Counted from the first letter of the stretch, positions 4,882-55,653 are shown. The stretch: 64,000 nucleotides of DNA from an uncultured Clostridia bacterium (GCA_947624995.1 CANQMS010000006.1:11393-75392), one strand, 5' to 3'. Program-made: numbers and translations. Notes: generated by a model from the letters alone, not told the origin.

Positions 4882-7065
4882 ATGGGCATATCATTTTTCC
4901 CCGAAAAAAAAATATTCAAGCTCGACACGTCCGCCTCGTCGTACATATTCAAAATAGGCGCGGGCGGCTACGTCATGGGGCTGTACTACGGCGCGCGCCT
5001 CGACGAGCACGACGTCGACTATCTCACGGTGCGCGAGGGGCACGACTCGACCGTGCCGCTCTCCGCCGCCGTTGACGACTGGCGCTTTTCCCCGGACACG
5101 ATGCAGGCTGAGTACCCGGCATACGGCTCGGGCGACTTCCGCATATCGGCGGTGAAGATAAAAAACGGGGACGGAAATTCCGTCACCGACTGCCGGTACG
5201 TCTCGCACAGAATATATAAGGGGAAGGAACCAATCCCGGGGATGCCGTCGACGGCAGGCGGCGAGGGCGAGGCGGAGACGCTCGAGCTATACTGCCGGGA
5301 CGTGACGGGCGCCGAGATCACGCTCGTCTACTCCGTCTATGAAAGCCACCCCGTCATAACGCGGCGCGCTGTCATAAAAAACGGCGGTGAGGCGCCGATA
5401 TATGTGGAGCGCGCGTACAGCGCCGCCGTCGATTTCACGCATCCGGAGTTCAGGCTGCTGCACCTCTGGGGCTGCTGGGGGCGGGAGAGGGCGGTCGAAC
5501 GCCGCGATCTCGGTCACGGCATAACGACTGTTTCGAGCGGGAGGGGCGCATCCGGGCATTATCACAACCCGTTCGCGGCGCTGCTCGCGCCGGGGTGTAC
5601 CGAGGAGTCCGGCGAGGCTTACGGGTTCAATCTCGTTTACAGCGGAAATTTCTCGATAGACGCGGAGGTGGACGCTTTCGGGCTCACGCGCATCCTTGTC
5701 GGTATAAATCCCGAGGGGTTTTCGTGGAAGCTCGAGCCGGGCGAGGATTTTTGCACGCCCGAGGCGGTTATGGTATATTCGGACCGGGGCGAGGGCGGCA
5801 TGTCTCGTGCGCTGCACCGCTTTTACCGCGAGCACCTGCTCTCGGAAAAGTGGTTAAAAGCGCCGCGCCCCGTCGTCGTCAACAACTGGGAGGCGACGTA
5901 TTTCGGATTCGACACGGAAAAGCTCGTCTCGATAGCGAGGTCGGCGGCGGAGCTCGGGATAGATATGCTCGTCGTGGACGACGGCTGGTTCGGCCGCCGA
6001 AATGACGACACCTCGTCCCTCGGCGACTGGGTCGCGAACGAGGAAAAGCTGCCGGGCGGGCTCTCTCTGCTCGCGGAGCGCGTGAATGCGCTCGGACTCG
6101 GGCTCGGGCTGTGGTTCGAGCCGGAAATGGCGAGCCGGGACAGCGACCTCTATCGCGCGCATCCGGAATGGTGCATACGGACTGAGGGGCGCGATATGTC
6201 GATCGCGCGCCATCAGTATATACTCGATCTATCGCGCGAGGACGTCCGGGACTATATCGTGGATTCGCTCTCGTCCGTGCTCTCGTCGGCGAATATCGAA
6301 TACGTCAAGTGGGATTTCAACCGCAATCTGACCGAGTATTCGTCGTCGCTCCTGCCGAGCGACAGGCAGGGCGAGGTCTTCCACCGCTATGTGCTCGGGC
6401 TCTATGAGGTCATAGAGAGGCTGCAAAAGGCTTTCCCGGACGTGCTGTTTGAGGGGTGCGCGTCGGGCGGCGGCAGATATGACCCCGCCATGCTGCACTA
6501 TTTCCCGCAGTACTGGACGAGCGACGACACGGACCCGCTCGAAAGGATAAAAATACAGTACGGGACCTCGATCGCGTACCCGGCGTGTACGATGAGCTGT
6601 CACGTCTCGGCGTCTCCGAACCATCAGACCGGGAGGCGGACGCCGCTCAGAACGCGCGGCGACGTTGCGGCGGCGGGCGTTTTCGGATACGAGCTCGACC
6701 CGACCGCGCTCTCCGACCGCGAGCGCGAGGAGGTGAGGCGGCAGATCGCGGAATACAAGGCGCACCGCCGCATCGTCATGGAGGGCGACCTCTATAGACT
6801 CGTCCCGCCGGAAGGGAACGTTGCCGCGTGGATGTATGTGACGCCGGATCTGGAGGAGGCGCTCTTTACATACGTCCGCATGAGGACGATGATAGCGCCC
6901 GTTTCGTTCGTCAGGCTCGCGGGGCTCGACCCGGACCGCACGTATACGGACGGGGACGGCAGGCGTTATCTCGGCAGCACGCTTATGCGCGCCGGGCTCA
7001 ATCTTACCGGCAGCCGCCGGGACGGCGAGAGCGTGACCGTTTATTTAAAGGCGGAGCCGCAGTAA
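4882..7065 (+). CDS. alpha-galactosidase, GH36
   Basis: NNWEATYF, VVDDGWF, YVKWDFNR, EGCASGGGR and WTSDDTD motifs; GGAGG RBS before ATG 4882. Confidence 0.93.
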   Translation: MGISFFPEKKIFKLDTSASSYIFKIGAGGYVMGLYYGARLDEHDVDYLTVREGHDSTVPLSAAVDDWRFSPDTMQAEYPAYGSGDFRISAVKIKNGDGNSVTDCRYVSHRIYKGKEPIPGMPSTAGGEGEAETLELYCRDVTGAEITLVYSVYESHPVITRRAVIKNGGEAPIYVERAYSAAVDFTHPEFRLLHLWGCWGRERAVERRDLGHGITTVSSGRGASGHYHNPFAALLAPGCTEESGEAYGFNLVYSGNFSIDAEVDAFGLTRILVGINPEGFSWKLEPGEDFCTPEAVMVYSDRGEGGMSRALHRFYREHLLSEKWLKAPRPVVVNNWEATYFGFDTEKLVSIARSAAELGIDMLVVDDGWFGRRNDDTSSLGDWVANEEKLPGGLSLLAERVNALGLGLGLWFEPEMASRDSDLYRAHPEWCIRTEGRDMSIARHQYILDLSREDVRDYIVDSLSSVLSSANIEYVKWDFNRNLTEYSSSLLPSDRQGEVFHRYVLGLYEVIERLQKAFPDVLFEGCASGGGRYDPAMLHYFPQYWTSDDTDPLERIKIQYGTSIAYPACTMSCHVSASPNHQTGRRTPLRTRGDVAAAGVFGYELDPTALSDREREEVRRQIAEYKAHRRIVMEGDLYRLVPPEGNVAAWMYVTPDLEEALFTYVRMRTMIAPVSFVRLAGLDPDRTYTDGDGRRYLGSTLMRAGLNLTGSRRDGESVTVYLKAEPQ

Positions 7066-7177
7066 AAAGTTTTGAAAAGGGGGGATCGGGGGGAAAAAAG
7101 ATGGGGCAGCCGCCCCATCTTTTGCTTTTTCGCGAGGCGAAAAAGCCGAATTTAATCCTAAAAGGCACTCCCCCCGG
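7064..7177 (-). repeat. hairpin/TTCAAA element, copy A (expanded, with two nested hairpins)
   Basis: AAAAAGTTTTGAAAAGGGGGGATCGGGGGGA ... CCTAAAAGGCACTCCCCCCGG; both ends match copy C. Confidence 0.8.
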
Positions 7178-7261
7178 CTCGCCCTAACCGATCCGCACAC
7201 TTTTACAACCTGCGGTTGAGTTTATGTTGCCGCAGACGATAGTTTATTTGATAAATCCGCG

Positions 7262-7290
7262 TTGACGCCGCGGATTTTTTGTTTTAGAAT
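7262..7290 (+). promoter_or_regulatory. sigma-A promoter for leader peptide and ABC transporter
   Basis: TTGACG-17 nt-TAGAAT. Confidence 0.65.
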
Positions 7291-7336
7291 AGACGACGGC
7301 GAATGTGCAAATGTTTGAAGGAAAGGAGAATTTACG

Positions 7337-7411
7337 ATGAGCATCGGAAAATTATTTGAAGAACACATACGGAAAAATGGGGCGCCGCGGCGCTGTCGGA
7401 ACATGAGATGA
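7337..7411 (+). CDS. putative 24-aa leader peptide MSIGKLFEEHIRKNGAPRRCRNMR
   Basis: AAAGGAG RBS; stop codon overlaps the 5' arm of a terminator-like hairpin upstream of the ABC transporter. Confidence 0.55.
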   Translation: MSIGKLFEEHIRKNGAPRRCRNMR

Positions 7412-7456
7412 GGCGATAGCTTCGGGACTCTGCCGATCGTCGCCTCATCCGTTTTT
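7407..7456 (+). terminator. attenuator-like hairpin
   Basis: GATGAGGCGA...TCGCCTCATC followed by CGTTTTT. Confidence 0.55.
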
Positions 7457-7486
7457 ATACGGACAATGAAAGGAGATCGGTATAAT

Positions 7487-9265
7487 ATGAAAAAATTTTT
7501 TAAAAAGGCAAAAAATATATTTTGGCTCATCGCGCCGTTCTGGAAGTACGGCAAGTGGGTCATCATATACGGGCTCATACACAACGGCATCATATGGCCG
7601 CTGCGCGACCTGCTCTACATCTATACGCCGCAGGTCGTTGTGAACGCGCTTGACGCGGGGCACGGGATCGCGTATGTGCTTTTGCTGACGGCGGGGCTGT
7701 ATTTCGTCTCGTTTGCGACGTTTTCGATATCGGATTATTATTGGGAGCTGCTCGACAAGGTCGGCAGCGAGCGCGCGAGGCTGAAAATTCGCAGGCTCGT
7801 GTATGACAAGGCGGAGGCGACGGATTACGCCTGCATCGACGACCCCGAGTTCTACGACAAATATAAATGGGCTCAGGACAATTTCGCGTCAAAGTCGCAG
7901 GACGCCGTCAATATGTGCAACAACCTTATTCGCGGCGTCATGTGCATATTGACGCTCGCCTCGGTCATAGCGACCGTTTCACCGTGGGCGATAGTCATCG
8001 TGACGGTGTACGCCTGCCTGCGCCTCCCCGTCAACGCGCGCCTCAACAAATACGAGATCGCGCGCGACGAGGAGTGCATACCTCATGACAGGCGCCTCGA
8101 CTATGTTCACCGCGTCTTTTATATGAAGGATTACGCCGCAGACCTGCGCTCGACGCGCCTGCCGGAGCTCTGCCGCCGCCACTACGACGAGCAGTCCGAG
8201 AAAAAGCTCGGCGTCATCTCGAAATATTCGAAAAAGGTGTTGAGGCTCGATATTCTGCTCTACGCGCTCTATGAGCTTTCGCAGTTTCTGATAATGGCGC
8301 TGATCGTTCTGTCGTTTTACCGCGGCGAGCTCGAGAGCACCGCAATGCTCGTGACGATGTTCATGGCGGCGGGGCAGCTGGCTGGCGACCTCTGGGACAT
8401 CACGGCAGTCGTCAAGGACTATGACAGGCTCGCGGGATATTCGGAGCGCATAAAGGCATTCTTCGATATGCCTTCAACTATCGAATCAAAACGCGACGGT
8501 GTCACAGTCCCGGGCGGTGCGTTTTCGCTCGAGATGAGGGACGTCGGATTCAGATATACGGATGAAAGTCCGTTCGTGCTGCGCCATCTGTCGCTCCGCG
8601 TCTCCCCCGGGGAGAGACTCGCGATAGTCGGCGAGAACGGAGCCGGAAAGTCAACGCTCCTCAAGCTTTTGTTGAGGCTTTACGACGTCACCGAGGGGGA
8701 GATCCTCATCGACGGCGTGAACATAAAGGAATACGATCCGCATATGCTCCGCGCGCGCGTCGGCGTCGCGTTCCAGAACACGAACGTGTACGCGATGACT
8801 ATGCGCGAAAATATCGGTCTCTGCCACGAGGCGGAGGGCGATCTTGACGCGGTCGTAAAGACGTTCGGCATCGACAGGGTGCTCGAGAAAAACGGTGTTG
8901 ACGCCGGATGCGAGATGACGAGGGAATTCTCGGAGCATGGCGTCGTCGTCTCCGGCGGCGAGGCGCAAAAGCTGGCGCTCACGCGCCTCAAAACGGCGGA
9001 GTTCGGGCTGTACCTGCTCGACGAGCCGTCCTCTGCGCTCGACCCGCTGGCTGAATATGAGATGACAAAGACGATAGTGAACGGAGCGGAAGGAAAGACG
9101 ACGCTGCTCATCGCGCACCGCCTCTCCTCCGTCCGCGAGATGGACAGGATCGTCCTCATCTCCGGCGGTCACGCCGCCGAATCCGGCACGCACGACGAGC
9201 TCATGAAGGCGGGCGGCATCTACGCCGCCATGTTCACAAAACAGGCCGAGGGATATAGAGAATGA
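7487..9265 (+). CDS. ABC transporter, fused permease and ATP-binding domains (exporter)
   Basis: N-terminal TM domain; GENGAGKST, VSGGEAQKL, LLDEP and AHRLS motifs. Confidence 0.92.
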   Translation: MKKFFKKAKNIFWLIAPFWKYGKWVIIYGLIHNGIIWPLRDLLYIYTPQVVVNALDAGHGIAYVLLLTAGLYFVSFATFSISDYYWELLDKVGSERARLKIRRLVYDKAEATDYACIDDPEFYDKYKWAQDNFASKSQDAVNMCNNLIRGVMCILTLASVIATVSPWAIVIVTVYACLRLPVNARLNKYEIARDEECIPHDRRLDYVHRVFYMKDYAADLRSTRLPELCRRHYDEQSEKKLGVISKYSKKVLRLDILLYALYELSQFLIMALIVLSFYRGELESTAMLVTMFMAAGQLAGDLWDITAVVKDYDRLAGYSERIKAFFDMPSTIESKRDGVTVPGGAFSLEMRDVGFRYTDESPFVLRHLSLRVSPGERLAIVGENGAGKSTLLKLLLRLYDVTEGEILIDGVNIKEYDPHMLRARVGVAFQNTNVYAMTMRENIGLCHEAEGDLDAVVKTFGIDRVLEKNGVDAGCEMTREFSEHGVVVSGGEAQKLALTRLKTAEFGLYLLDEPSSALDPLAEYEMTKTIVNGAEGKTTLLIAHRLSSVREMDRIVLISGGHAAESGTHDELMKAGGIYAAMFTKQAEGYRE

Positions 9266-9284
9266 TTAGGTTTAGAGGGATAAA

Positions 9285-9344
9285 TGCGGGAAGGAAACTT
9301 TTCATGAAAAGTTTCCTTCCCGCACCCTTCTTTCAAAAGTTTTT
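9285..9344 (+). repeat. hairpin/TTCAAA element, copy B
   Basis: Perfect 40-bp palindrome TGCGGGAAGGAAACTTTTCATGAAAAGTTTCCTTCCCGCA, then CCCTTCTTTCAAAAGTTTTT. Confidence 0.9.
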
Positions 9345-9492
9345 ATTATTGGACATACAAGTTTTTTATATCGCATATAAGCGGGCATGCTGCACAGTTA
9401 CGAACGATTCTACGTTTTAGCTAAATCGGGGGCGTTCGTTTTGTGAAAAAATACCTATTTTATTTTTGACGTACGTATGGTACAATAATATT

Positions 9493-9704
9493 GAACTCTG
9501 CGGAGTGCGTGACAACCCGGTTATTTAAACCCACGAAAGATTAAATGGGGTCCGGCTTCAGTCGGTGTCGATGCAGGCCTCCCGCTCGCCGGCAGCTTTT
9601 GCTCGCGACGGACGTTGGAAGCTCAAAAGCCGATCGAGAGGACATACCAGCCTTGCGAGAGCAGGGTTTCTAATCGCCGGGATGCACGGCCCTCGCGGGG
9701 TTTC
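9493..9704 (+). ncRNA. ssrS: probable 6S RNA
   Basis: End-to-end pairing GAACTCTGCG/CGCGGGGTTTC, GTGCGT/ATGCAC and CCCGG/CCGGG; A-rich 5' central bubble; 3' bubble hairpin CCTTGC-GAGA-GCAGGG; extended -10 TGGTACAAT upstream; T-run downstream. Confidence 0.72.
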
Positions 9705-9834
9705 TTTTTTCCCGATCTTTTGCGTCGCCCGAAATAGCGGGCGGCGCAAAAATATTATATCCGCTACTTGATTTTTTCACGCGAATGTATTAGAATACAT
9801 AATGGAACGAAAAACCAAAAAGGGAGATATAAAA

Positions 9835-10788
9835 ATGGCACTCGTAACAACAAAAGAAATGTTCGCAAAAGCGTATAACGGCGGCTACGCTGTCGGCGCT
9901 TTCAACGTAAACAACATGGAGATCATCCAGGGCATCACTGAGGCGGCCATCGCCCAGAAATCCCCGCTCATCCTTCAGGTCAGCAAGGGCGCCCGCAACT
10001 ATGCGAAGCACGCGTATCTTATGAAGCTGATCGAGGCGGCTCTCATCGACGCACAGGAATCTGCCGGATTCGACCTTCCGATCGCGGTCCATCTCGACCA
10101 CGGCGACACGTTTGAGCTCTGCAAGTCCTGCATAGACGGCGGCTTCACCTCCGTCATGATCGACGGCTCGTCAAAGAGCTTCAAGGACAATATCGAGCTG
10201 ACAAAGAAGGTCGTTGAATACGCGCACGCTCACGGCGTTGTCGTCGAGGCGGAGCTCGGAACGCTCGCAGGCGTTGAGGACGAGGTCAAGGTTTCCGCTG
10301 AGGATTCTTCTTACACGAAGCCCGAGCAGGTCGAGGAATTCGTCGGCGCTACCGGATGTGACTCGCTCGCTATCGCCATCGGCACGAGCCACGGCGCGTA
10401 CAAGTTCAAGCCCGGCACGAAGCCGCAGCTCAGATTCGATATCCTCGAAGAGGTTTCAAAGCGCCTGCCCGGATTCCCGATAGTGCTGCACGGCTCGTCG
10501 TCCGTCCCGCAGGAGTTTGTCAAGGAGATCAACGAGAACGGCGGCAATATGCCCGGCGCTATCGGCGTTCCCGAGGATCAGCTCCGTCACGCGGCGTCCA
10601 TGGCGGTCTGCAAGATCAACATTGACTCCGACCTGCGCCTCGCTATGACGGCGTCCATACGCAAGTACTTCAACGAGCATCCCGATCACTTCGATCCCCG
10701 CCAGTACCTCAAGCCCGCGCGCGAGGCTATCAAGGCAATGGTCGAGCACAAGATCGTCGACGTCCTCGGCTCGAACGGAAAAGCGTAA
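9835..10788 (+). CDS. fba: class II fructose-1,6-bisphosphate aldolase
   Basis: HLDHG, VEAELG, AIGTSHG, LHGSS and KINID motifs. Confidence 0.95.
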   Translation: MALVTTKEMFAKAYNGGYAVGAFNVNNMEIIQGITEAAIAQKSPLILQVSKGARNYAKHAYLMKLIEAALIDAQESAGFDLPIAVHLDHGDTFELCKSCIDGGFTSVMIDGSSKSFKDNIELTKKVVEYAHAHGVVVEAELGTLAGVEDEVKVSAEDSSYTKPEQVEEFVGATGCDSLAIAIGTSHGAYKFKPGTKPQLRFDILEEVSKRLPGFPIVLHGSSSVPQEFVKEINENGGNMPGAIGVPEDQLRHAASMAVCKINIDSDLRLAMTASIRKYFNEHPDHFDPRQYLKPAREAIKAMVEHKIVDVLGSNGKA

Positions 10789-10812
10789 GCGCAAGCCATA
10801 TAAGCAAACATC

Positions 10813-10848
10813 GGGGACGGCTTATAACCGTCCCCTCTGCTTTTCTTT
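10813..10848 (+). terminator. intrinsic terminator after fba
   Basis: GGGGACGG/CCGTCCCC stem with T-rich tail. Confidence 0.65.
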
Positions 10849-10875
10849 ATTTTTCTGAAACAAACGGAGAAAACG

Positions 10876-11598
10876 ATGATTTGGAGTGAAGATTATCGCG
10901 TGACGGCGCTCGACGTCGACATGACGGGGGCATTCAGCCCGGCGGCGATGATGAGATATATGCAGGAGACCGCGTACCGCCACATGGCGGGCACGGGTCC
11001 GACGGAGGACGAGCTGCGCTCGCGCGGACAGGCGTTTCTGCTCTCGCGGATAATATTTTATATCTACGGCGAGCTTCACCACGGGGACGCATTCACGCTC
11101 AGAACGTTTGCGGAGAAGAGCCGCGGGATCAGCTTCGGGCGCGTTTTTATGATATACGGCGCGGACGGCGAAAAAATTGCAGAGGCAAAAACGGTTTGGG
11201 TGCTGTACGATCTGTATGAGCGCAAAATCGTGCGCGTCGACAGTATAGGCGAGCTTTACGGACCCGAGCCGCCGCTCGAAACGGAGCTGCCCCGCAGGCT
11301 TTCGATCCCGGACGGGATGGAGCCGTCGCCGCTCTGCGTCCGGCGCGTCGACTACCCGGACGTCGACGTCAACGGTCACATGAACAACACCGTGTACGCG
11401 GGTTTCCTCTGCGGGTATGTGCCGGAGATACGCGCGGGCGAGGCGAGAGTTTCCTCGCTGTATATAAATTACAGCAACGAGTCAAAGCTCGACGACGAGA
11501 TCTCCGTCTCTATGTGCGGCAGCCGCGGCGAATGGTTCTTCCGCACGCACAGGGCGGACGGAAAGCTGAATGTCGAGGCGAGGATAACGACGGTATGA
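10876..11598 (+). CDS. acyl-ACP thioesterase family protein
   Basis: Double hot-dog pattern; DVDVNGHMNNTVY motif. Confidence 0.85.
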   Translation: MIWSEDYRVTALDVDMTGAFSPAAMMRYMQETAYRHMAGTGPTEDELRSRGQAFLLSRIIFYIYGELHHGDAFTLRTFAEKSRGISFGRVFMIYGADGEKIAEAKTVWVLYDLYERKIVRVDSIGELYGPEPPLETELPRRLSIPDGMEPSPLCVRRVDYPDVDVNGHMNNTVYAGFLCGYVPEIRAGEARVSSLYINYSNESKLDDEISVSMCGSRGEWFFRTHRADGKLNVEARITTV

Positions 11599-12152: not shown

Positions 12153-12231
12153 GCGTTGCGCGATGTTATCGCGCGTTGCTTGACTTTTGCGCGCTCCCGG
12201 CGTATGATGGCTTTCGAAGAGGAGGCTCTGT

Positions 12232-12660: not shown

Positions 12661-12664
12661 AGCT

Positions 12665-12706
12665 GCATAAAAATATGCGCGGGCGGACCCGCGCATATTT
12701 TTATGC
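12665..12706. terminator. bidirectional terminator
   Basis: GCATAAAAATATGCGCGGG-CGGA-CCCGCGCATATTTTTATGC between convergent genes. Confidence 0.8.
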
Positions 12707-14632: not shown

Positions 14633-14647
14633 TTTGTTATTGCCACC

Positions 14648-15734: not shown

Positions 15735-15762
15735 AAACAGATAAAATAAAGGGGGCGTATCT

Positions 15763-18483: not shown

Positions 18484-18710
18484 AACGTTTGTACCTCGGT
18501 GCCATTTTTTTGATGCACACTTATTGTACGCCGTGTGGGGCACAATATCAACCTACAGAACGTTTCCGCGCCTCGACGCGCCGTTCCGCGCCGGTAGAGA
18601 AGACAAAAACGGACTCTACGGGCAGTAGAATTTCCTTGCGCCGCCTGTATCTACGCGCAGTCGAGCCTGCCGCGCCCTCTCTCGGTTCACACCGTCACAA
18701 CACAGTCAAT

Positions 18711-18771
18711 AAAAAGTTTTGAAGATAGGGGTCCGGGGGAAGTGCCTTTCCTAAAAGGCACTTCCCCCGGA
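18711..18771 (-). repeat. hairpin/TTCAAA element, copy C
   Basis: TCCGGGGGAAGTGCCTTT-CCTA-AAAGGCACTTCCCCCGGA; minus-strand tail CCCCTATCTTCAAAACTTTTT; 11 nt after the thiI stop. Confidence 0.9.
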
Positions 18772-31620: not shown

Positions 31621-31680
31621 CCGGGGGAGAAAACTTTCTCGAAAGTTTTCTCCCCCGGACCCTCTTTTTCAAAGCTTTTT
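31621..31680 (+). repeat. hairpin/TTCAAA element, copy D
   Basis: CCGGGGGAGAAAACTTTC-TC-GAAAGTTTTCTCCCCCGG, then ACCCTCTTTTTCAAAGCTTTTT. Confidence 0.9.
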
Positions 31681-31739
31681 AAGATAAAAGTCTGGTTTCT
31701 GCGGCGAAATATGATTGCATTTTTTGTGAAGATGCGAAT

Positions 31740-32721: not shown

Positions 32722-32788
32722 CGCGTCCGAATCTCGGGCGCGTTTTTTGTTTTCCGAAAAGAGCTCGCCCGCCGGGCGTTCTTTTTTT
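32722..32788 (+). terminator. two tandem intrinsic terminators
   Basis: CGCGTCCGA-ATC-TCGGGCGCG-TTTTTT and AAAAGAGCTCGCCC-GCC-GGGCGTTCTTTTTTT. Confidence 0.7.
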
Positions 32789-37477: not shown

Positions 37478-37533
37478 GCGAGGGGAAACTTTCAAGAGAA
37501 AGTTTCCCCTCGCGCTCCCTTTCAAAGCTTTTT
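37478..37533 (+). repeat. hairpin/TTCAAA element, copy E1 (left half of inverted doublet)
   Basis: GCGAGGGGAAACTTTC-AAGA-GAAAGTTTCCCCTCGC, then GCTCCCTTTCAAAGCTTTTT. Confidence 0.9.
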
Positions 37534-37548
37534 ACTTTTTAAGTCAAT

Positions 37549-37605
37549 AAAGATTTTTGAAGGTGGGTCCGGGAGGGAACTTTTTTTAAAAAGTTCCCTC
37601 CCGGA
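37549..37605 (-). repeat. hairpin/TTCAAA element, copy E2 (right half of inverted doublet)
   Basis: TCCGGGAGGGAACTTTTT-TT-AAAAAGTTCCCTCCCGGA; minus-strand tail CCCACCTTCAAAAATCTTT. Confidence 0.88.
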
Positions 37606-37612
37606 AATATTA

Positions 37613-39348: not shown

Positions 39349-39377
39349 ATTATATAACCGCGACCGCCGCTTGTCAA
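39349..39377 (-). promoter_or_regulatory. consensus sigma-A promoter
   Basis: TTGACA-17 nt-TATAAT; -35 box overlaps the upstream stop codon. Confidence 0.75.
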
Positions 39378-41632: not shown

Positions 41633-42706
41633 ATGAGCACGCTAAAGCTGAAAACGGCGCGGGCGCTCGATGGCGAGCCGGTCGTAATAAGATCCGAACC
41701 GGCAGACGGGCTCGTCGGGCTGCGCGGCAAGGTCTGCGGGAACGAGTGCGAGGGCTGCGTTTTCCCCGCCGTATACGAAAACGGCGCCGTCACCGCCATC
41801 GTGACCGCGCCTGCGGGCGAGCACGAGCTTGAAGTCGTGACCGGGGAGTCGGCGCCCGCGGTGACGCTGTCAAAAGTGGGCGACGGCAGAGTCGATATCG
41901 CGATAAACGGCGAGCCGTTCACCTCGTATGTGACGGATCCGGCGCTCGCAAAGCCGTATCTCGGACCGGTGATGACATCGTTCGGCGAGAGCTACACAAG
42001 GCTCGACTTCGAGACGAAGGAGCACCCGCATCACCGCTCCGTCTTCTTCGGAGTAGGAGACGTGACGCTTGACGGCGGACCCGAGCACGTCGATTTCTGG
42101 AACGAGCCCGCAAACTGCGGCATACAGAAGTCAACGGGGATCAAAAACACAGTCTCAAACAACGTCTGCGCCTCATTCACGGCGGGGACGCAGTGGTGCT
42201 CGCACGACGGGGTGCCGATGATCGACGCCGAGTGCGAATACAAATTCTACGCGCAGAACCGCAGCGTCCGCTATATCGACCTCGCCCTCACGTACACGGC
42301 AGCGTACGGCGGCGTGACGTTCTGGAAGACGAAGGAGGCGGGACCGCTCGGCGTCCGCATGGCGGACCCGCTGCGCGCGGAGAGGGGCGGCTATATCGCC
42401 AATTCATACGGCGCGCGCGGAGAGGGCGAGTGCTGGGGGCGCGCCGCGAACTGGTGCGTCTACGGCGGCGAGCTTTCGGGGCACAAGATCGGCATCGCGG
42501 TGTTCGACGACCCCAGAAACGAGCGCTACCCGACCTCGTGGCATATCCGCGACTACGGTCTCTTCGCCGCGAACAACCTCTATTTCAAGGGCCCCGTTCG
42601 TATCGAATCAGGCGAAACCCTCACCTACCGATACCGCCTCGTCTTCTTCGAGGGGACGCCCGAGGCGGCGAGGATCGCCGACAGATTTATTGTTTATGCT
42701 AAATAA
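41633..42706 (+). CDS. PmoA-like (DUF6807-type) soluble protein of unknown function
   Basis: KPYL.PV, HPHHRSVFF, DFW, TKEAG.LGVRM, WG..ANW and WHIRDYGLFAAN motifs. Confidence 0.75.
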   Translation: MSTLKLKTARALDGEPVVIRSEPADGLVGLRGKVCGNECEGCVFPAVYENGAVTAIVTAPAGEHELEVVTGESAPAVTLSKVGDGRVDIAINGEPFTSYVTDPALAKPYLGPVMTSFGESYTRLDFETKEHPHHRSVFFGVGDVTLDGGPEHVDFWNEPANCGIQKSTGIKNTVSNNVCASFTAGTQWCSHDGVPMIDAECEYKFYAQNRSVRYIDLALTYTAAYGGVTFWKTKEAGPLGVRMADPLRAERGGYIANSYGARGEGECWGRAANWCVYGGELSGHKIGIAVFDDPRNERYPTSWHIRDYGLFAANNLYFKGPVRIESGETLTYRYRLVFFEGTPEAARIADRFIVYAK

Positions 42707-42712
42707 AATAAG

Positions 42713-42772
42713 CCGGGGGAAGTGCCTTTCGGGAAAGGCACTTCCCCCGGACCCCCATCTTCAAAGCTTTTT
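42713..42772 (+). repeat. hairpin/TTCAAA element, copy F1 (left half of inverted doublet)
   Basis: CCGGGGGAAGTGCCTTTC-GG-GAAAGGCACTTCCCCCGG, then ACCCCCATCTTCAAAGCTTTTT; stem nearly identical to copy C. Confidence 0.9.
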
Positions 42773-42786
42773 ATGGCTATTATTAT

Positions 42787-42845
42787 AAAAGCTTTTGAAG
42801 GAGGGGTGCGGGGAGGAAACTTTTCTCGAAAAGTTTCCTCCCCGC
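42787..42845 (-). repeat. hairpin/TTCAAA element, copy F2 (right half of inverted doublet)
   Basis: GCGGGGAGGAAACTTTTC-TC-GAAAAGTTTCCTCCCCGC; minus-strand tail ACCCCTCCTTCAAAAGCTTTT. Confidence 0.9.
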
Positions 42846-42856
42846 GTTATTCCCCC

Positions 42857-45944: not shown

Positions 45945-46128
45945 AATATTCCCCACATAAAGGTGTAATATACTTTTTAACAGTATAACATCCGCATGCC
46001 GAAAAAATAAGTCGTAAATAGCTATATGCAAAATCCAACACAAAATAATAAAATGAGTAAAAACTGTTGTGTAAAAAATTACACTATGATATAATATACA
46101 TACTATCACAAAAAAGGAGAATTTGCAA

Positions 46129-46791: not shown

Positions 46792-46799
46792 ATAATAAA

Positions 46800-46840
46800 A
46801 AAACGACCGGGGACGCCTGTGGGCGTCCCCGGATGTTTTT
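46800..46840. terminator. bidirectional terminator
   Basis: CCGGGGACGCC-TGTG-GGCGTCCCCGG flanked by A- and T-runs. Confidence 0.7.
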
Positions 46841-46854
46841 GCTTCAGGGCAGAT

Positions 46855-49207: not shown

Positions 49208-49260
49208 TTTTTGATTCCTCCATAAAATTGTGAGCTTCAACGCTAATTATGTATGTAATT

Positions 49261-49289
49261 ATTATACACGCCCCGCCTCCCTCTGTCAA
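49261..49289 (-). promoter_or_regulatory. consensus sigma-A promoter of the cell-wall protein
   Basis: TTGACA-17 nt-TATAAT. Confidence 0.8.
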
Positions 49290-49481
49290 CCGCTTATTTC
49301 AATATGACGAAAATTTATTTTTCAGACGCGCCCGATTTTATACACTTTTTTCCTTTTTATAGCGCATTGTGACAATTGTGTTACAAAAAAAGACCGTCCC
49401 CCGGCTTTCGCCGAAGGACGGTTTTTCCGAAAACAAAATTTCCGTGACGGTTTCGCTTTTGCCGCTTCTTTCCCGCGTTCC

Positions 49482-49883
49482 TTATCTCTTTGAGAACTGG
49501 GACGCACGGCGCGCCTTTTTGAGACCGTACTTCTTTCTCTCGACCATTCTCGGGTCGCGGCGGAGGAACCCGGCGCGCTTGAGCGCGGGGCGGAAGTTCT
49601 CGTCCGCATTGCAGAGGGCGCGGGCGAGCCCGTGACGGATGGCGCCTGCCTGCCCGGAATAGCCGCCGCCGCGAACGGTGGCGATGATGTCAAACTTGCC
49701 CTCGGTGTCGGTGACGGCGAAGGGCTGGTTGACGATGAGCTTGAGCGTGTCAAGCCCGAAATAGTTGTCTATATCTCTGCCGTTGATCGTCACGACGCCG
49801 GAGCCGGGAACGATGCGGACGCGGGCGACGGACTTCTTTCTTCTGCCGGTGCCGTAGAAATAGGGTTTAGCGCTTGTGTACAT
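49482..49883 (-). CDS. rpsI: 30S ribosomal protein S9
   Basis: [27 protein letters not shown] and C-terminal QFSKR. Confidence 0.98.
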
Positions 49884-49901
49884 TTAATCGTCCTCCCTTT
49901 C

Positions 49902-50330
49902 TTATATCTCGTAAGCCTCGGGCTTCTGTGCCTGCTGCTTATGCTCGGGTCCGCGGTAAACGCGGAGCCTCGTTATCGCCTTGTCGCCGATGGAGTTCTT
50001 CGGGAGCATCCCCTTGACGGCGAGCTCCATTGCGAGCTCGGGGCGGGTCGCCATCAGCGTCTTATACTGGACTTCCTTCAGTCCGCCGATGTAGCCGGAG
50101 TGACGGCGATAATACTTCTGCGTGAGCTTTTTGCCCGTGAGGACTGCCTTTTCCGCGTTTATGACGATAACATATTCGCCGCAGTCGACATGGGGCGTGA
50201 ATTCGGGGCGGTGCTTGCCGCGCAGGATCGTGGCGGCGGCGACAGCCGTCTTCCCGAGAGGCTTGCCCGCCGCGTCTATTACGTACCACTTGCGGCTGAC
50301 AGTCTCTTTCTTTGCCATGTAGGTTGACAT
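49902..50330 (-). CDS. rplM: 50S ribosomal protein L13
   Basis: [24 protein letters not shown] and AVKGMLPKN motifs. Confidence 0.98.
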
Positions 50331-50379
50331 TTTGCTTCCTCCGTTATATAAAAAGCATTTTTCGAGTCGTGCAGGCATG

Positions 50380-50408
50380 ATTATACATTATCGCCGCCGC
50401 CTTGTCAA
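50380..50408 (-). promoter_or_regulatory. consensus sigma-A promoter of rplM-rpsI
   Basis: TTGACA-17 nt-TATAAT. Confidence 0.85.
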
Positions 50409-50597
50409 TACGAAAACGGAAAAAAGTTTTCGGAATTTCAAAAAAAGTATAGACTATCTCTCAAAAGCTCGCGAAAGCTCGCGTTTTTGCGCCTCATTTT
50501 CGCCGGCGGTACACGTTTTTTCTTCTCCCGCATATTTACTTTCGGAAAAAAATCTGCTACAATTATCTATAGCTATGCGGCATTAAGGAGGCGTACC

Positions 50598-51251
50598 GTG
50601 ACGGATTACAGAGGGATAATAGCGAAGAACCTCATCAGCCTGCGCACATCTGCCGGGCTCACCCAGGCGGAGGTCGCCTCAAAGCTGTCATACTCGGACA
50701 AGGCGGTCTCAAAATGGGAGCGGGCGGAGAGCATCCCGGACATCGCGGTACTTAAGGCGATCGCGGATATGTACGGCGTCACCGTCGACTACCTGCTCGC
50801 GCCGCACGGCGCCGAGACGGAGCTGCCGCAGAAGCAGGGTCCGCGCAAAATGACGCGGAACAAGACGCTCATAACGATCATTTCCGTCGTGGGCGTATGG
50901 TTTCTGGCGCTCGTCATCTTCGCCGCGTGCTTTTTCAGCGGGGTCCCCGGCTGGCAGGCGTTTTTGTGGGCGGCGCCCGTCTCGCTGACGGTCGCGCTCG
51001 TTTTAACGTGCGTGTGGGGCGGGCGAAACATGATGTTCGTCTTTATATCGGCTCTTTTGTGGTCGCTGTCGGCGGCTGTATATATAACATGGATGGAAGC
51101 GCGCCCGTGGCTCGTCTTTATCGGCGCGGGGATCCTCGAGGTGATCGTGATCCTCGCCTTCGGCATCAGGCTTTTGCCGAAGTCAAAAGACGGCGAAAAG
51201 ACCGAGCCCGGTGAGGGCGGAGACGGCAGCGGGGGAGGCGGCGAGGCGTGA
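50598..51251 (+). CDS. XRE-family HTH regulator with 4 TM helices
   Basis: LTQAEVASKLSYSDKAVSKWER; AAGGAGG RBS before GTG 50598. Confidence 0.85.
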   Translation: MTDYRGIIAKNLISLRTSAGLTQAEVASKLSYSDKAVSKWERAESIPDIAVLKAIADMYGVTVDYLLAPHGAETELPQKQGPRKMTRNKTLITIISVVGVWFLALVIFAACFFSGVPGWQAFLWAAPVSLTVALVLTCVWGGRNMMFVFISALLWSLSAAVYITWMEARPWLVFIGAGILEVIVILAFGIRLLPKSKDGEKTEPGEGGDGSGGGGEA

Positions 51252-52483
51252 GGCGACCTGAGCTTTTGTGCCCCGCCGGGAACGCGGAAAAGCTGCGCGC
51301 CGTCATCGGCTACGGGGCGGACGCGGTCTATCTCTCCGGCAAAAAATACGGGATGCGGTCCGCGTGCGATAATTTTACGGAGGCGGAGCTGCGGGACGCG
51401 GTCGAATTCGCGCACACGCGCGGCGTCCGCGTGTATGTGACCGTCAACATCCTGCCGAGGACGCGCGAATACGGCGAGCTCTCGGAATACATAAAATTCC
51501 TCGACGGTATCGGCGCGGACGCCGTCATCGTCTCGGACATCGGCGTCGTCTCGCTCGTGCGGGAGCGCGCGCCGCGGCTGGGTGTACACATCTCGACGCA
51601 GGCGTCCGTCGTCTCGGCGGAGGCGGCGCGCGCGTGGCACGCGCTCGGCGCCGAGCGCGTTGTGCTCGCGCGGGAGCTGACGCTCGACGAGATCAAAGAG
51701 ATACGCGAGAATACGCCCGAGACGCTGGCGCTCGAGGCGTTCGTCCACGGGTCGATGTGCATCGCGTACAGCGGGCGGTGCCTGCTCTCGAACTATTTTA
51801 CGGGTCGGGACGCGAACCGCGGCGAGTGCTCGCAGCCGTGCAGGTGGAATTATACGGTCCGGCGCGTCGAGGTGACGGAGGAAAAGCGTCCCGGCACGAT
51901 GATACCGATAGAGGAGACGGAGGCGGGCACGCTCGTCATGAGCTCGCGCGACATGTGCATGATCGGGCACGTCCCGGAGCTTATTTCGGCGGGCATCGAC
52001 AGCTTTAAGATCGAGGGGCGCGTGAAGAGCGCGTATTACGGCGCGGTCACCGCGAACGCGTACAGGATAGCGATCGACCGCTACCGCTCCGACCCGGGCG
52101 GGTACGTCTTTGACCCGGCGCTCCTTTCCGAGCTCGAGAGCGTCTCGCACCGCGAATACTGCACGGGGTTCTATTTCGGCGCGCCGAACGGCGGGGCGAA
52201 CACGGTCAGCTCCGGCGGGTACCTGCGCGACAAATCATATCTTGCCGCCGTGCTCTCATATGATGAAAACACATGCACGGCGCGCTTTATGCAGAAGAAC
52301 AAGCTCTGCCGCGGGGACACGGTCGAGATCGTTTCGCCCGGGTCGGTCGGGCGGCGCTTTTCGGTCGGCGAGCTCTACGGCGAGGGGGGCGAGCCGATAG
52401 AGGCGACGCCGCATCCCGGCATGATATATTCGGCTGCCGTGCCGTTTCCGGTGCGAGCCGGCGATATAATGAGATCAGTATAA
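51248..52483 (+). CDS. U32-family protein (TrhP-like tRNA hydroxylase)
   Basis: ELLCPAG, HISTQAS, HGSMCIAYSGRC, NRGECSQPCRW and KIEGRVKS motifs. Confidence 0.88.
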   Translation: MRRPELLCPAGNAEKLRAVIGYGADAVYLSGKKYGMRSACDNFTEAELRDAVEFAHTRGVRVYVTVNILPRTREYGELSEYIKFLDGIGADAVIVSDIGVVSLVRERAPRLGVHISTQASVVSAEAARAWHALGAERVVLARELTLDEIKEIRENTPETLALEAFVHGSMCIAYSGRCLLSNYFTGRDANRGECSQPCRWNYTVRRVEVTEEKRPGTMIPIEETEAGTLVMSSRDMCMIGHVPELISAGIDSFKIEGRVKSAYYGAVTANAYRIAIDRYRSDPGGYVFDPALLSELESVSHREYCTGFYFGAPNGGANTVSSGGYLRDKSYLAAVLSYDENTCTARFMQKNKLCRGDTVEIVSPGSVGRRFSVGELYGEGGEPIEATPHPGMIYSAAVPFPVRAGDIMRSV

Positions 52484-52496
52484 GGGGAAAGAGAAT

Positions 52497-53348
52497 ATGA
52501 CAGCATTTTTCGAAGCGATAAAGGCGATACTGTTCGGCATCGTCGAGGGCATCACGGAGTGGCTGCCCGTGTCGAGCACGGGGCACCTGATCCTGCTCGA
52601 CGAGTTCGTCCGGCTCGACGTGAGCGACGAATTCAAGGAAATGTTCGAGGTCGTGATCCAGCTCGGCGCGATCCTCGCCGTCGTCGTTCTGTTTTTTAAG
52701 AAGCTGAACCCGTTCGACGGGGGCAAAACGGAAAAGCAGAAGCTGGCGACGTGGCATCTGTGGCTGACGGTCGTGATAGCCGTTCTGCCGTCCGCCGTGA
52801 TCGGGTTCTTGTTTGACGACTGGTTCGACGCGACGTTTTATAATCCGCCGACGGTCGCGGCGACGCTGATCATATACGGTATAGCGTTCATCCTGATCGA
52901 GCGGTGGCGGCAGGGCAAGGCGCCCGAGATCAAGTCGCCGTACGCCGTCTCGCTCAAGACGGCGGCGCTGATCGGCTGCTTTCAGGTGCTCGCGATAATC
53001 CCCGGGACGTCGCGCTCCGGCTCGACGATCCTCGGCGCGATGATCCTCGGCATGTCGAGGACGGCTGCCGCGGAGTTCTCGTTCTTCCTCGCGATCCCGA
53101 CGATGCTCGGCGCGTCGCTTTTGAAGGTCGTCAAGTTCATCTTCGGCGGCGCCGCCGCGATGACGGGGACGGAGGTCACGGTCCTCATCGTCGGCTGCGT
53201 TGTGGCGTTCGCGGTCTCGCTCGTGTCGATAAAGTTCCTGATGGATTTCGTGAAGCGGCACACGTTCACCTCGTTCGGCGTTTACAGGATCGCGCTCGGC
53301 TTGCTCGTTTGCGTTTACTTCCTTATTAAAGGCTTTGCCGCGGCGTGA
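52497..53348 (+). CDS. uppP: undecaprenyl-diphosphate phosphatase
   Basis: GIVEGITEWLPVSSTGHL, PGTSRSGST and AAEFSFFLAIP motifs. Confidence 0.95.
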   Translation: MTAFFEAIKAILFGIVEGITEWLPVSSTGHLILLDEFVRLDVSDEFKEMFEVVIQLGAILAVVVLFFKKLNPFDGGKTEKQKLATWHLWLTVVIAVLPSAVIGFLFDDWFDATFYNPPTVAATLIIYGIAFILIERWRQGKAPEIKSPYAVSLKTAALIGCFQVLAIIPGTSRSGSTILGAMILGMSRTAAAEFSFFLAIPTMLGASLLKVVKFIFGGAAAMTGTEVTVLIVGCVVAFAVSLVSIKFLMDFVKRHTFTSFGVYRIALGLLVCVYFLIKGFAAA

Positions 53349-53454
53349 GTTTTTTCGCGATAAAAGAGCAAATGGCGCTTGTAAAAACGCGTGAATTGTG
53401 ATATAGTATTGATGGTTTCCAAATATCAGTAATATTTAAGGAGATTTTCGGAAC

Positions 53455-54756
53455 ATGGCAAAGTACAATAAGAAAACTATCGAGGATATCGACGTATCCG
53501 GCAAGCGGGTCCTCGCCCGCTGCGACTTCAACGTCCCGATGGAGGGCGGCAAGATCACGGACGACAAGCGCATTGTCGGCGCTATGCCCACGATCAAGTA
53601 CCTTTCCGAGCACGGCGCGCGCGTCATCCTCTGCTCGCATCTCGGCAGACCGCACAACGTGCTGAACGAGAAGATAAAGCTTGACAAGAAAGAGAAGAAA
53701 AAGGTCGAGGAGCTGCCCGAGTCCGAGCGCGAGGCGGCGACTGCGGCGTATATCGAGAAGGCGAAGGGCGATATAAAGAAGCTCTCGCTCGCGCCCGTTG
53801 CGGAGCGCATATCCGAATATCTCGGCGCGCCCGTCGTCATGGCGTCCGACGTTGTCGGTCCGGACGCGAAGGCGAAGGCGGCGACGCTGAAGGACGGGGA
53901 GGTCATGCTCCTTGAAAACGTCCGCTTCCACGCGGAGGAGGAGAAGAACGATCCCGAGTTCGCGAAGGAGCTTGCCTCTATGGCGGACATTTATGTGAAT
54001 GACGCGTTCGGCACGGCGCACAGGGCGCACGCGTCGACCGCCGGCGTTGCGGATTATCTGCCCGCAGTCTGCGGATATCTGATCCAGAAGGAGATCACGA
54101 TCATGGGCGGCGCGCTCGAGGACCCGAAGCGCCCGTTCGTCGCGATCCTCGGCGGCGCTAAGGTTTCGGACAAGATCGGCGTCATAAACAATCTGATCGA
54201 AAAGGTCGACATGCTCATCATCGGCGGCGGCATGGCGTACACGTTCTTCCGCGCGCTCGGCTCGCCCATCGGCAATTCGATCTGCGAGGAGGACAAGGTC
54301 GACCTCGCGCGCGAGCTGATGGAAAAGGCGCGCGCAAAGGGCGTCAAGTTTCTGCTCCCCGTCGACAACATAATCGGGCGCGAGTATAAGGAAGACACCG
54401 TTTCGATGCGCATCTATTCCGATTCCATCCCGGACGGCTGGATGGGTCTTGACATAGGTCAGACGACGCAGGAGCTGTTCGCGAAGTCGATAGTCGGCGC
54501 GGGCACGGTAGTCTGGAACGGCCCGATGGGCGTTTCCGAATGGGAGCACTTCGCGGCGGGCACCGAGTGCGTTGCCGAGGCGGTTGCGGATTCGGGCGCG
54601 ATCTCGATCATCGGCGGCGGCGACTCCGCGGCGGCGATCGAAAAGCTCGGCTATGCGGACAAGATGACGCACATCTCTACGGGCGGCGGCGCAAGCCTCG
54701 AATTCCTCGAAGGCAAGGAGCTCCCCGGCATAGCCTGCCTCAACGACAAGGACTGA
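53455..54756 (+). CDS. pgk: phosphoglycerate kinase (with internal insertion)
   Basis: [45 protein letters not shown] and STGGGASLE motifs. Confidence 0.97.
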
Positions 54757-54797
54757 AAACAGACAAATAGTTTTAAAACAGGAGATCCCATAAGGAT

Positions 54798-55556
54798 ATG
54801 AAAGATACGAGAAGAACGGTCATCGCCGGAAACTGGAAGATGAACAAGACGCCGTCCGAGGCGAAGGCGCTCGTCGCGGCTATCGCCGAGAAGGCGGCGG
54901 GCAAGGACAATTGCGACGTTGTCCTCTGCGTCCCGTATGTCGACATCCCCGCCGCCGTCGAGGCGGCGAAGGGCACGAACGTGAAGATCGGCGCCGAGAA
55001 CGTCCATTTCAAGGAATCGGGCGCTTACACGGGCGAGATCTCCGCCGCGATGCTCGTTGAGTGCGGCGTGACGCACGTCATCGTCGGGCACAGCGAGAGA
55101 AGACAGTATTTCGGCGAGACGGACGAGACAGTCAATCTCCGCGCGAAGGCGGGGCTCGCAGCCGGGCTCAAGGTCATCATCTGCGTCGGCGAGGTCATCG
55201 GTCAGAGGCAGTCGGGCATCACGTCCGAGATCGTCTCGATGCAGACGAAGCTCGCGCTCGCGGGGATCGAGGACATCTCGAACGTCATCATCGCGTACGA
55301 GCCAGTGTGGGCTATCGGCACCGGTCTGACGGCGACGCCCGAACAGGCGGACGAGGTCTGCGGCATCATCCGCGGCGTCGTTGCGGAGCTGTACGGCGAG
55401 GAAAAGGCGGAGGCGCTGACGATACAGTACGGCGGCTCCATGAACGATAAGAACGCCGCCGAGCTCCTCGGCAAAGTCAATGTCGACGGCGGGCTCATCG
55501 GCGGCGCGTCCCTCAAGGCGGACGCGTTCGGCGCCATCATCGACGCGGCTCAGTGA
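54798..55556 (+). CDS. tpiA: triosephosphate isomerase
   Basis: AGNWKMN, GHSERR, AYEPVWAIGTG, YGGS and GGASL motifs. Confidence 0.98.
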   Translation: MKDTRRTVIAGNWKMNKTPSEAKALVAAIAEKAAGKDNCDVVLCVPYVDIPAAVEAAKGTNVKIGAENVHFKESGAYTGEISAAMLVECGVTHVIVGHSERRQYFGETDETVNLRAKAGLAAGLKVIICVGEVIGQRQSGITSEIVSMQTKLALAGIEDISNVIIAYEPVWAIGTGLTATPEQADEVCGIIRGVVAELYGEEKAEALTIQYGGSMNDKNAAELLGKVNVDGGLIGGASLKADAFGAIIDAAQ

Positions 55557-55590
55557 TTTGAACAGGGCATATATAATCATATATAATTAT

Positions 55591-55653
55591 TGCGGGAGAG
55601 GGGACTTTTTAAAAAAAGCCCCCTCTCCCGCACCCACTCCTTCAAAAATTTTT
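55591..55653 (+). repeat. hairpin/TTCAAA element, copy G
   Basis: TGCGGGAGAGGGGACTTTTT-AA-AAAAAGCCCCCTCTCCCGCA (1 mismatch), then CCCACTCCTTCAAAAATTTTT. Confidence 0.88.

Follow-up and report, generated by a model that had tools for sequence, protein, structure and literature searches.

The window examined here is a 64,000-nucleotide (nt) stretch of DNA from an uncultured Clostridia bacterium (G000:C6:11393-75392). It holds nine copies of a short intergenic element made of a hairpin with a purine-rich 5′ arm, a pyrimidine linker, the box TTCAAA and a T-run. The host genome, labelled G000, is a 2.34 Mb draft of 77 contigs with 57.8% G+C and 97.6% completeness. Re-inspection of the sequence recovered all nine copies named by the original prediction, with stems of 16-19 base pairs (bp), a pyrimidine stretch of 7-9 nt, TTCAAA, 1-2 further bases and the T-run. 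A covariance model of the family found precisely these nine copies in the window and nothing else. TTCAAA is itself frequent in the window, where it occurs 37 times, more than in any of 100 shuffles (21.8 ± 4.6); nine of the 37 are element sites. The copies are listed below with their host genes, and the stretch between hairpin and T-run is called the third strand.

Copy A, 7055-7130, minus strand (C6:18447-18522, model E 6e-5): degenerate; T-run, TTCAAA (7071-7076), third strand and a 3′-arm remnant retained, 5′ arm swapped for a different small hairpin.
Copy B, 9285-9345, plus strand: 18-bp hairpin at 9285-9324 with loop CATG, third strand 9325-9338 with TTCAAA at 9332-9337, T-run to 9345; follows an ABC-transporter gene (stop 9265, 20 nt before the hairpin).
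Copy C, 18709-18771, minus strand: hairpin 18732-18771, third strand with TTCAAA at 18718-18723, T-run; follows thiI on the minus strand (stop 18782, about 11 nt).
Copy D, 31621-31681, plus strand: 17-bp hairpin at 31621-31658, then the third strand at 31659-31674 (ACCCTCTTTTTCAAAG, a mirror of the 5′ arm GGGAGAAAACTTTC) and the T-run at 31675-31681; stands behind the nicotinate phosphoribosyltransferase gene pncB (stop 31605, 15 nt).
Copy E1, 37478-37534, plus strand: hairpin 37478-37513, third strand GCTCCCTTTCAAAG, T-run; tail-to-tail partner of E2; follows the phosphate propanoyltransferase (PTAC) gene (stop 37458, 19 nt).
Copy E2, 37548-37605, minus strand: hairpin 37568-37605, third strand with TTCAAA at 37556-37561; follows a class-V aminotransferase gene on the minus strand (stop 37613, about 7 nt).
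Copy F1, 42713-42773, plus strand: hairpin 42713-42750, third strand, TTCAAA at 42760-42765, T-run; tail-to-tail partner of F2; follows the DUF6807 gene (stop 42706, 6 nt).
Copy F2, 42785-42845, minus strand: hairpin 42808-42845, third strand with TTCAAA at 42794-42799; follows a gene for a 715-aa protein on the minus strand (stop 42857, about 11 nt).
Copy G, 55591-55654, plus strand: 19-bp hairpin at 55591-55632 with a single A:C mismatch, third strand CCCACTCCTTCAAAAA with five A opposite the five T of the stem top, T-run 55649-55654; follows tpiA (stop 55556, 34 nt).

The eight copies from B to G all share the strand of the preceding gene and begin about 6-34 nt behind its stop codon, in keeping with the eight of nine that had been predicted. 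Copy A had been singled out as the only reversed copy. Its orientation, on the strand opposite to its upstream gene, holds, but the copy is also degenerate. The TAA stop (7063-7065) of the GH36 alpha-galactosidase gene at this site is supplied by the complement of the copy A T-run, and that gene's own terminator (7099-7130) is an ordinary hairpin and T-run partly made of the copy A remnant.

A crude scan of the whole genome for a hairpin with TTCAAA gave 89 places. A covariance model, the check suggested along with the original prediction, was built on a seed alignment of eight window copies and 20 others from the genome, in which RNAalifold called 12 pairs and showed compensatory changes at 10. 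The genome scan with this model yielded 146 matches at E ≤ 0.01 among the best 150 of 995 candidates. The 127 best were kept and the 19 weakest left out, giving 114 non-overlapping places; 104 of these are full-length and were analysed, and 101 have a clean hairpin parse, the denominator of most copy statistics below. The family numbers about 100 copies in the 2.34 Mb genome, each a unit of about 60-70 nt. The stem is perfect in 85 of the 101 copies, with a median length of 17 bp and a median energy of -31 kcal/mol, and the loop measures 3-4 nt in 97. Rfam gave no match in the window at gathering score, and a permissive Rfam search over E1/E2 returned only hairpin look-alikes far below threshold, the best at 35.4 bits against a cut-off of 80.4. 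With about 100 copies and no Rfam match, the idea of a dispersed family at gene 3′ ends stands.

The tail mirrors the stem

The stretch behind the hairpin is the parallel complement of the 5′ arm, meaning its complement read in the same direction, and equally the mirror of the 3′ arm. G and A in the 5′ arm are answered by C and T in the tail, and a pyrimidine stem top of C TTT, C TTTT or C TTTTT is answered by C AAA, C AAAA or C AAAAA. TTCAAA arises because the stem top turns pyrimidine in this way and the tail mirrors the change. The linker and the box had been taken for a fixed sequence, and they are in fact a mirror that covaries with the stem. TTCAAA is present in all nine window copies, as first noticed, but genome-wide it gives way to variants that follow the stem top. 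These alternative boxes, written as stem top/tail, include AAATTTT/TTTAAAA, AACTCTT/TTCAGAA, ACTTCTT/TCAAGAA, ACCTTTT/TCCAAAA and AACCTCTT/TTCCAGAA, and the shorter pairs CTCTT/CAGAA, CTTCTT/CAAGAA and ATTTT/TAAAA. The purine runs of the tail vary to match, as AAA, AAAA, AAAAA, AAAG, AAAAG, AGAA and AAGAA.

The rule holds statistically. In 75 of 101 copies the tail's purine run and the pyrimidine run of the stem top are exact parallel complements, as opposed to 19.7 ± 3.4 on permutation (maximum 34 in 10,000), and the count of C at the purine/pyrimidine junction agrees in 77. Scored over the whole third strand, the parallel complement reaches 6.19, as opposed to -4.4 for the antiparallel complement, -9.2 for a direct copy and -7.8 for the mirror of the 5′ arm. 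It is the sole best of these four relations in 98 of 101 copies, and shuffled tails score -2.19 ± 0.28. Among the 56 TTCAAA-anchored copies, the linker scores 4.32 against its own stem and 2.24 ± 0.20 against the stems of other copies (z about 10). Third strands average 15.8 nt, are shorter than the arm by 1-3 nt in 76 of 101 copies, and follow the stem in length (Spearman 0.56). Under conventional folding the entire post-hairpin stretch is left unpaired in 89 of 101 copies. Related subfamily members show matched changes across all three blocks; for example, otherwise identical units read ACC TTT / AAAGGT / TTC AAAA in one case and AAT TTT / AAAATT / TTT AAAA in the other.

Two other relations were considered and rejected. 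Antiparallel Watson-Crick pairing of the tail with the stem top would give AAGAG where CAGAA occurs, and a tail that directly repeats the 5′ arm is ruled out by the variants CTCTT to CAGAA and CTTCTT to CAAGAA.

The rule was replicated in 40 copies from eight other species, which are top-scoring matches and hence biased toward the consensus. In 35 of them the top run matches exactly, and in all 40 the parallel complement comes out best, with a score of 7.03 against the own stem and 6.20 ± 0.20 on permutation. Judged by eye, copies from four further families of the order obey the rule too, as do those on three viral contigs. Four elements of the genome (G000 C9:34628-34743, C17:26936-27034, C19:18739-18835 and C8:59060-59155) carry a loop insert of 20-35 nt that forms a small G+C-rich hairpin of its own, with the outer arms and the mirrored tail retained.

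Because the linker and TTCAAA covary with the stem, a three-stranded fold explains them better than a nuclease cleavage site or a fixed protein-binding box. We know of no copying mechanism that yields mirror repeats, and for that reason we infer that the mirror relation has been selected for such a fold. The unit would then consist of a purine-rich arm, R, with a pyrimidine-rich top; a loop of 3-4 nt; the Watson-Crick arm, Y; a third block, set off by a 0-3 nt turn, which is both the mirror of Y and the parallel complement of R; and the T-run. The strand would fold back twice, forming the hairpin first and then laying the third block into the major groove of that hairpin. Any strand folding back from a hairpin base takes the same direction as the 5′ arm. 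All 101 parsed copies have the block order purine arm, pyrimidine arm, Hoogsteen block. The letter rule yields four canonical triplets, C.G-C and T/U.A-T/U in the parallel (Hoogsteen) sense and A.A-T/U and G.G-C in the antiparallel (reverse Hoogsteen) sense, according to the triplet rules in section 3 of PMC4666352 and section 6 of PMC7583470. In the block-order scheme of section 3 of PMC4666352, the order would be that of a class III intrastrand triplex on the sense strand and of class I on the antisense strand. The shift of the purines from the 5′ to the 3′ arm reads as the pattern of an alternate-strand triple helix. Beal and Dervan reportedly described such an alternate-strand triplex, in which the strand switches at a 5′-purine/pyrimidine-3′ junction with ordinary linkages.

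Gene ends and the candidate stop signal

Gene ends were taken from a rough home-made caller that gave 1831 genes (84% coding). A same-strand stop codon lies just upstream of 85 of the 104 full-length copies, at a median of 16 nt, which agrees with the predicted orientation of a 3′-end module; the genes preceding the elements are ordinary housekeeping genes. For 54 of the 104 copies the downstream neighbour is the stop of a convergent gene, and for 35 it is a tandem start, whereas convergent regions make up only 230 of 1754 intergenic regions. All eight close pairs are tail-to-tail and none is head-to-head.

These features recall intrinsic terminators, which likewise present a G+C-rich hairpin and then a T-run, stand after genes on the gene strand and lie tail-to-tail between convergent genes. 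The family differs from them in that its T-run begins 13-20 nt past the stem base rather than 0-2 nt, with the covarying mirror in between, and in that its stems are unusually long and perfect. A simple terminator scan placed a canonical hairpin and T-run after 260 genes and an element after 85, with both at only 4 gene ends; about a quarter of the predicted terminators of this genome would be of the element type. Within the 120 nt downstream of 102 elements, a canonical hairpin and T-run was found for 13, and in 4 of these 13 it is the partner element read backwards. Ordinary terminators of the window include those at 46807-46832, a bidirectional one between two genes with a perfect 11-bp G+C hairpin and T-runs on both sides, and at 32722-32742. 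The 8 nt preceding the element hairpin are 61-85% A+T by position (e.g. window 55565-55590 and 42695-42712). On the opposite strand, a T-rich stretch comes directly after the hairpin, which there scores as a canonical terminator, and the unit may stop transcription from both sides.

Orthologous sites in relatives carry either kind of structure. The site behind tpiA holds the same element in the nearest relative (G006), an element of different sequence, with a tail that matches its own arm, in G016, and ordinary terminators in G004, G018 and G003. After the pncB, PTAC, aminotransferase and DUF6807 genes, ordinary hairpin and T-run terminators mostly stand in G002, G010, G005, G009, G016 and G015. 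After the PTAC gene, G002 has a full element and G010 a hairpin only, with the third block and the stem base deleted; the deletion apparently lies between two C-runs. A comparison of empty and filled sites had been proposed as a sign of mobility, and no empty-site alleles were found among the orthologous sites compared. By these comparisons, element and canonical terminator are interchangeable in evolution, and this is the main reason for reading the element as a stop signal.

A mechanism can be sketched from these parts. The hairpin of 17 bp would form first, and the third block would zip up the stem while leaving the polymerase. The zipped block would bring the folded structure up to the T/U-run, the role played by the lower stem in an ordinary terminator, and the resulting 3′ end would be tucked into a compact fold. 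The family would multiply as whole units are copied to new gene ends. We give a probability of roughly 55% to the reading of the unit as a transcription stop and 3′-end module of the preceding gene, composed of a hairpin and a mirrored third strand and carried as a copied cassette. Our confidence is higher for the sequence rule and lower for any specific physical mechanism. A bolder version is tentative, and we would sooner bet against it than on it. It holds that a major-groove triple helix underlies these terminators, which would be the first natural ones of the kind in bacteria: the strand downstream of the nascent RNA's hairpin would clamp it in an alternate-strand triplex (C+.G-C and U.A-U, followed by A.A-U and G.G-C). 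The fold would release polymerase at the distant U-run and cap the mRNA 3′ end, and as a mobile cassette the unit would replace ordinary terminators across a genus of gut Clostridia.

The same positions can be explained without a third strand. The elements might be ordinary lineage-specific terminators in which the hairpin alone pauses or stops polymerase, together with the T-rich stretch of the linker or the later T-run, and the C/T-rich spacer would resemble the 3′ arm through composition and subfamily descent only. Position, orientation and the swap with canonical terminators would suit any terminator, the lower third strand is weakly specific to its own stem, and there are subfamilies in which stems and tails are co-inherited. 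Descent accounts for stem and tail travelling together, but it does not account for a parallel complement in every subfamily or for matched changes in all three blocks between close copies. The parallel complement is, moreover, the best relation in 98 of 101 and 40 of 40 copies, and the distance from stem base to T-run departs from the canonical rule. We regard such plain terminators as decidedly improbable, and a stop module with a mirrored third strand remains the preferred reading.

A putative triple helix, in RNA or in DNA

Where a triplex would form can be argued either way. Nascent RNA is our leading candidate, at a little under even odds; single-stranded or supercoiled DNA comes second, with perhaps a chance in three; and the absence of any triplex is the least probable outcome, though far from negligible. 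RNA is favoured because of the strict sense orientation, the T-run and the location between convergent genes.

A number of observations weigh against the stop module, its third strand or its placement in RNA. A pyrimidine-motif RNA triplex requires protonated C, and 3-6 consecutive C stand at the start of these third strands. No more than 0-3 nt are left for the turn behind the 3′ arm, and in most copies the third strand falls short of the arm by 1-3 nt. The lower, purine part of the arm is mirrored imperfectly: all runs are mirrored in 57 of 101 copies against 47.8 ± 2.7 on permutation (maximum 59), which is not significant, and the mean number of matched runs (2.95 against 2.54 ± 0.07) is the only significant measure there. 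The rule is broken by GTGCC/GTGAC stems and by GAAGG stretches, whose third strand is CATC, and the C next to the junction remains C instead of becoming G. The association of stem and tail could partly reflect shared subfamily descent. As to position, 12 of the 104 copies are seemingly beside a gene start and 7 have nothing near, and the gene caller is a rough one. Stem mismatches were searched for a wobble bias and show no preference for G:U (G:T 5, A:C 7 and C:A 1 in 101 stems); hence they give no sign that selection acts on the sense RNA. Statistically, the rule is strongest at the stem top, where A stands opposite U-A and G opposite C-G; these are purine-motif triplets, which are said in section 3 of PMC4666352 to be unable to form in RNA; DNA is therefore favoured for this part, or else an unconventional RNA geometry. 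Finally, the E. coli PIT and TM_ECO repeats are without terminator activity according to sections 3 and 20 of PMC4666352.

PIT and TM_ECO belong, with BoxC, to the potential intrastrand triplex repeats described in bacteria (Holder et al. 2015, PMC4666352, citing Hoyne et al. 2000). On their model, the Clostridia element might act at the level of DNA, with a triplex in DNA and not in RNA. The best candidate would be a class I purine-motif fold of the antisense (template) strand, with G.G-C and A.A-T below and T.A-T above, or else H-DNA with a cruciform under supercoiling. Like BoxC and TM_ECO in E. coli, the fold would matter for unit copying, recombination or polymerase blockage, and the hairpin and T-run would merely make insertions at gene ends tolerable or useful. 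The purine-motif triplets of the stem top are compatible with DNA, the antisense-strand triplets would nearly all be independent of pH, and the 85 perfect stems come without wobble bias. Section 13 of PMC4666352 states that the purine-motif TM_ECO repeat folds by nuclear magnetic resonance and circular dichroism, with a melting temperature of 70-82 °C, and that its copy number is patchy in close species, as it is here; the unit boundaries are also sharp and copies identical. A stable H-DNA analogue is reported to block T7 RNA polymerase in vitro (PMC4538819).

A purely DNA-level element would, however, leave unexplained the strict sense orientation behind stops, the sense-strand T-run and the exclusively tail-to-tail pairs. 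The majority of copies stand between convergent genes, and the positive supercoiling expected there should work against extrusion. TM_ECO itself shows no strand bias and is commoner upstream of open reading frames (PMC4666352 section 18), unlike the Clostridia family, and according to sections 3, 13, 18 and 20 of that paper it showed neither promoter nor terminator activity. We hold an element acting in DNA alone to be unlikely, if worth serious attention. A mixed arrangement is possible, in which a DNA fold would serve the copying of the unit and the hairpin and T-run its usefulness at gene ends.

BoxC, PIT and TM_ECO, as described in PMC4666352, count among the closest known systems. They share with the Clostridia element three consecutive blocks that can fold back twice, an intergenic location in many copies, uneven numbers among close relatives, frequent inverted pairs and the lack of an associated transposase. 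The TM_ECO sequence pattern is absent from the family: TM_ECO is a 9-nt C-rich block, a loop, a 9-nt G-rich block, a 3-nt loop and a further 9-nt G-rich block (class II; section 13). Its order is Y-R-reverse-Hoogsteen with 9-bp stems, against R-Y-Hoogsteen (class III) with about 17 bp in the Clostridia family. The latter also differs in a third strand that switches strands at the stem top, in its T-run and in the strict orientation and distance from the stop codon. An intrastrand-triplex-type repeat with the place, orientation and T-run of a terminator would be a new combination within a known kind of repeat.

Spread and known counterparts

Matches at E ≤ 1e-5 were found in 13 of 18 other genomes of the genus, with counts, among up to 113 candidates scored per genome, of 110, 103, 103, 60, 55, 48, 20, 13, 11, 10, 8, 2 and 1. 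The remaining five have none at that threshold, and three of these are 90-97% complete. Farther out, a few matches occur in one of six other genera of the family and in one of 16 other families sampled, and of 150 other genomes sampled evenly across the order, 6 have 1-6 matches at E ≤ 1e-6 among the best 30 candidates per genome. One locus from another family (L170, G133:C18:21440-21950) holds four elements in a head-to-tail array with units of about 120 nt. Elements also stand beside tpiA in two named metagenome bins, whose TIM identity is 69%; the nearest named relative has 79% TIM identity. Among viral contigs, 26 stretches fit a gapped pattern and three are convincing by the model (L247, L248 and L252, from IMG/VR); a fourth, weak at E 1e-4, was not counted. 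A plasmid collection searched with F1+F2 as query in distant mode gave no match.

The element behaves as a discrete unit. Members of a subfamily are identical over about 62 nt at unrelated loci, and homology runs from the first base of the hairpin to just past the T-run. In three subfamily alignments the flanks share nothing. The unit is asymmetric, with the hairpin at one end and the T-run at the other. Such near-identical, sharp-ended units at unrelated loci, together with the very uneven counts within the genus, point to spread by copying. In G006, at 91-95% DNA identity, the contigs C113, C155 and C122 end inside elements D, E1/E2 and F1/F2. One junction in this relative runs into unrelated sequence through the palindrome and is probably an assembly flip. 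Elements of this kind fragment short-read assemblies.

The original prediction thought of a mobile element linked to HUH/Y1 nucleases, by way of REP-RAYT systems or IS200/IS605 ends. Its mobile part accords with the sharp ends, the uneven counts and the relative's contigs that end inside elements, but the HUH/Y1 link found no support. In its general form, the proposal would be a non-autonomous mobile element, whether of the REP/RAYT or IS200/IS605 kind or a miniature inverted-repeat transposable element, that depends on a nuclease or transposase supplied in trans to recognise the hairpin and cut close to TTCAA. Discrete units with identical copies at unrelated loci, a range of 0 to 110 copies among species of one genus, and the few copies in other families and three viral contigs would all suit it, as would the contig breaks at elements. 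A search for the enzyme speaks otherwise. Pfam Y1_Tnp (PF01797) has no match in the genome (3 candidates scored), where it must be kept in mind that draft bins often miss repeated transposase genes. In the genus, likewise known from draft assemblies, it occurs in one of 18 other genomes (G005, a partial match) and in none of G006, G009 and G016, which have at least 100 copies each; a control search matched 6 of 14 named genomes. Neither the genome nor any of these three richest relatives has a match to RVT_1, and enzyme families beyond Y1_Tnp and RVT_1 were not searched. The unit shows neither terminal inverted repeats nor a GTAG-type REP head, target duplications are not visible by eye in the flank alignments, though no formal test was made, and TTCAA covaries with the stem where a cutting site should be fixed. 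Of the alternatives considered, a transposable element of this sort has the slimmest chance, and we prefer a copied stop module.

The comparison extends to several known systems. REP/BIME elements with their RAYT enzymes and IS200/IS605 ends are likewise dispersed extragenic hairpins. IS608-type ends make non-Watson-Crick contacts beside a hairpin and have TCAA-like end sites. The family differs from both in having no Y1_Tnp match and no conserved head tetranucleotide, in a TTCAA-like site that varies with the stem, and in complementarity that spans the whole stem. The 3′-end RNA triple helices of PAN ENE and MALAT1 (PMC7583470) offer a parallel in function, insofar as a tail in the major groove would hide the 3′ end from exonucleases. 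Those structures are U.A-U clamps on an A-rich tail in viral and eukaryotic RNAs, whereas the third strand of the family is C/U-rich and then A/G-rich and covaries copy by copy. The word "terminator" appears 0 times in the review, and in the passages covered here bacteria or prokaryotes appear only for riboswitches and in general remarks. A literature search, judged by title and abstract, gave nothing relevant on a triple-helix terminator or a bacterial 3′-end RNA triplex.

Designed DNA offers a likeness in architecture. Sklenar and Feigon (1990) are said to have designed intramolecular R-Y-Y triplexes, Beal and Dervan (1992) reportedly made alternate-strand triplex-forming oligonucleotides, and related work by de Bizemont et al. 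(1996, 1998) is cited in PMC2532714. These designs have the same block order, with pyrimidine-motif and purine-motif segments joined by normal linkages at a 5′-purine/pyrimidine-3′ junction. They are synthetic DNA constructs, whereas the Clostridia family occurs naturally in genomes.

If the fold is real, each genome would offer about 100 natural variants of one triple-helix design, each with compensatory changes, as a ready data set for the rules of intramolecular triplexes, strand switching included. The place of a terminator would give bacterial intrastrand-triplex repeats, 25 years without a function, a first clear genomic role. It would also broaden the definition of a factor-independent terminator, since current predictors would miss or misplace such units, and terminators would act as copied, replaceable cassettes in uncultured gut Clostridia.

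Two minor features deserve mention. Another small hairpin repeat, composed of a T-run, CGC, 3-5 nt, GCG and an A-run, is present five times in the genome, at window 7126-7144, C13:15946, C47:5220, C47:5335 and C50:3285, and hairpins similar to it are nested inside elements of G016 and G010. In the window, sigma-70-type promoter matches of 12/12 with 17-nt spacers lie at 39349-39377 and at 49261-49289 (minus strand).

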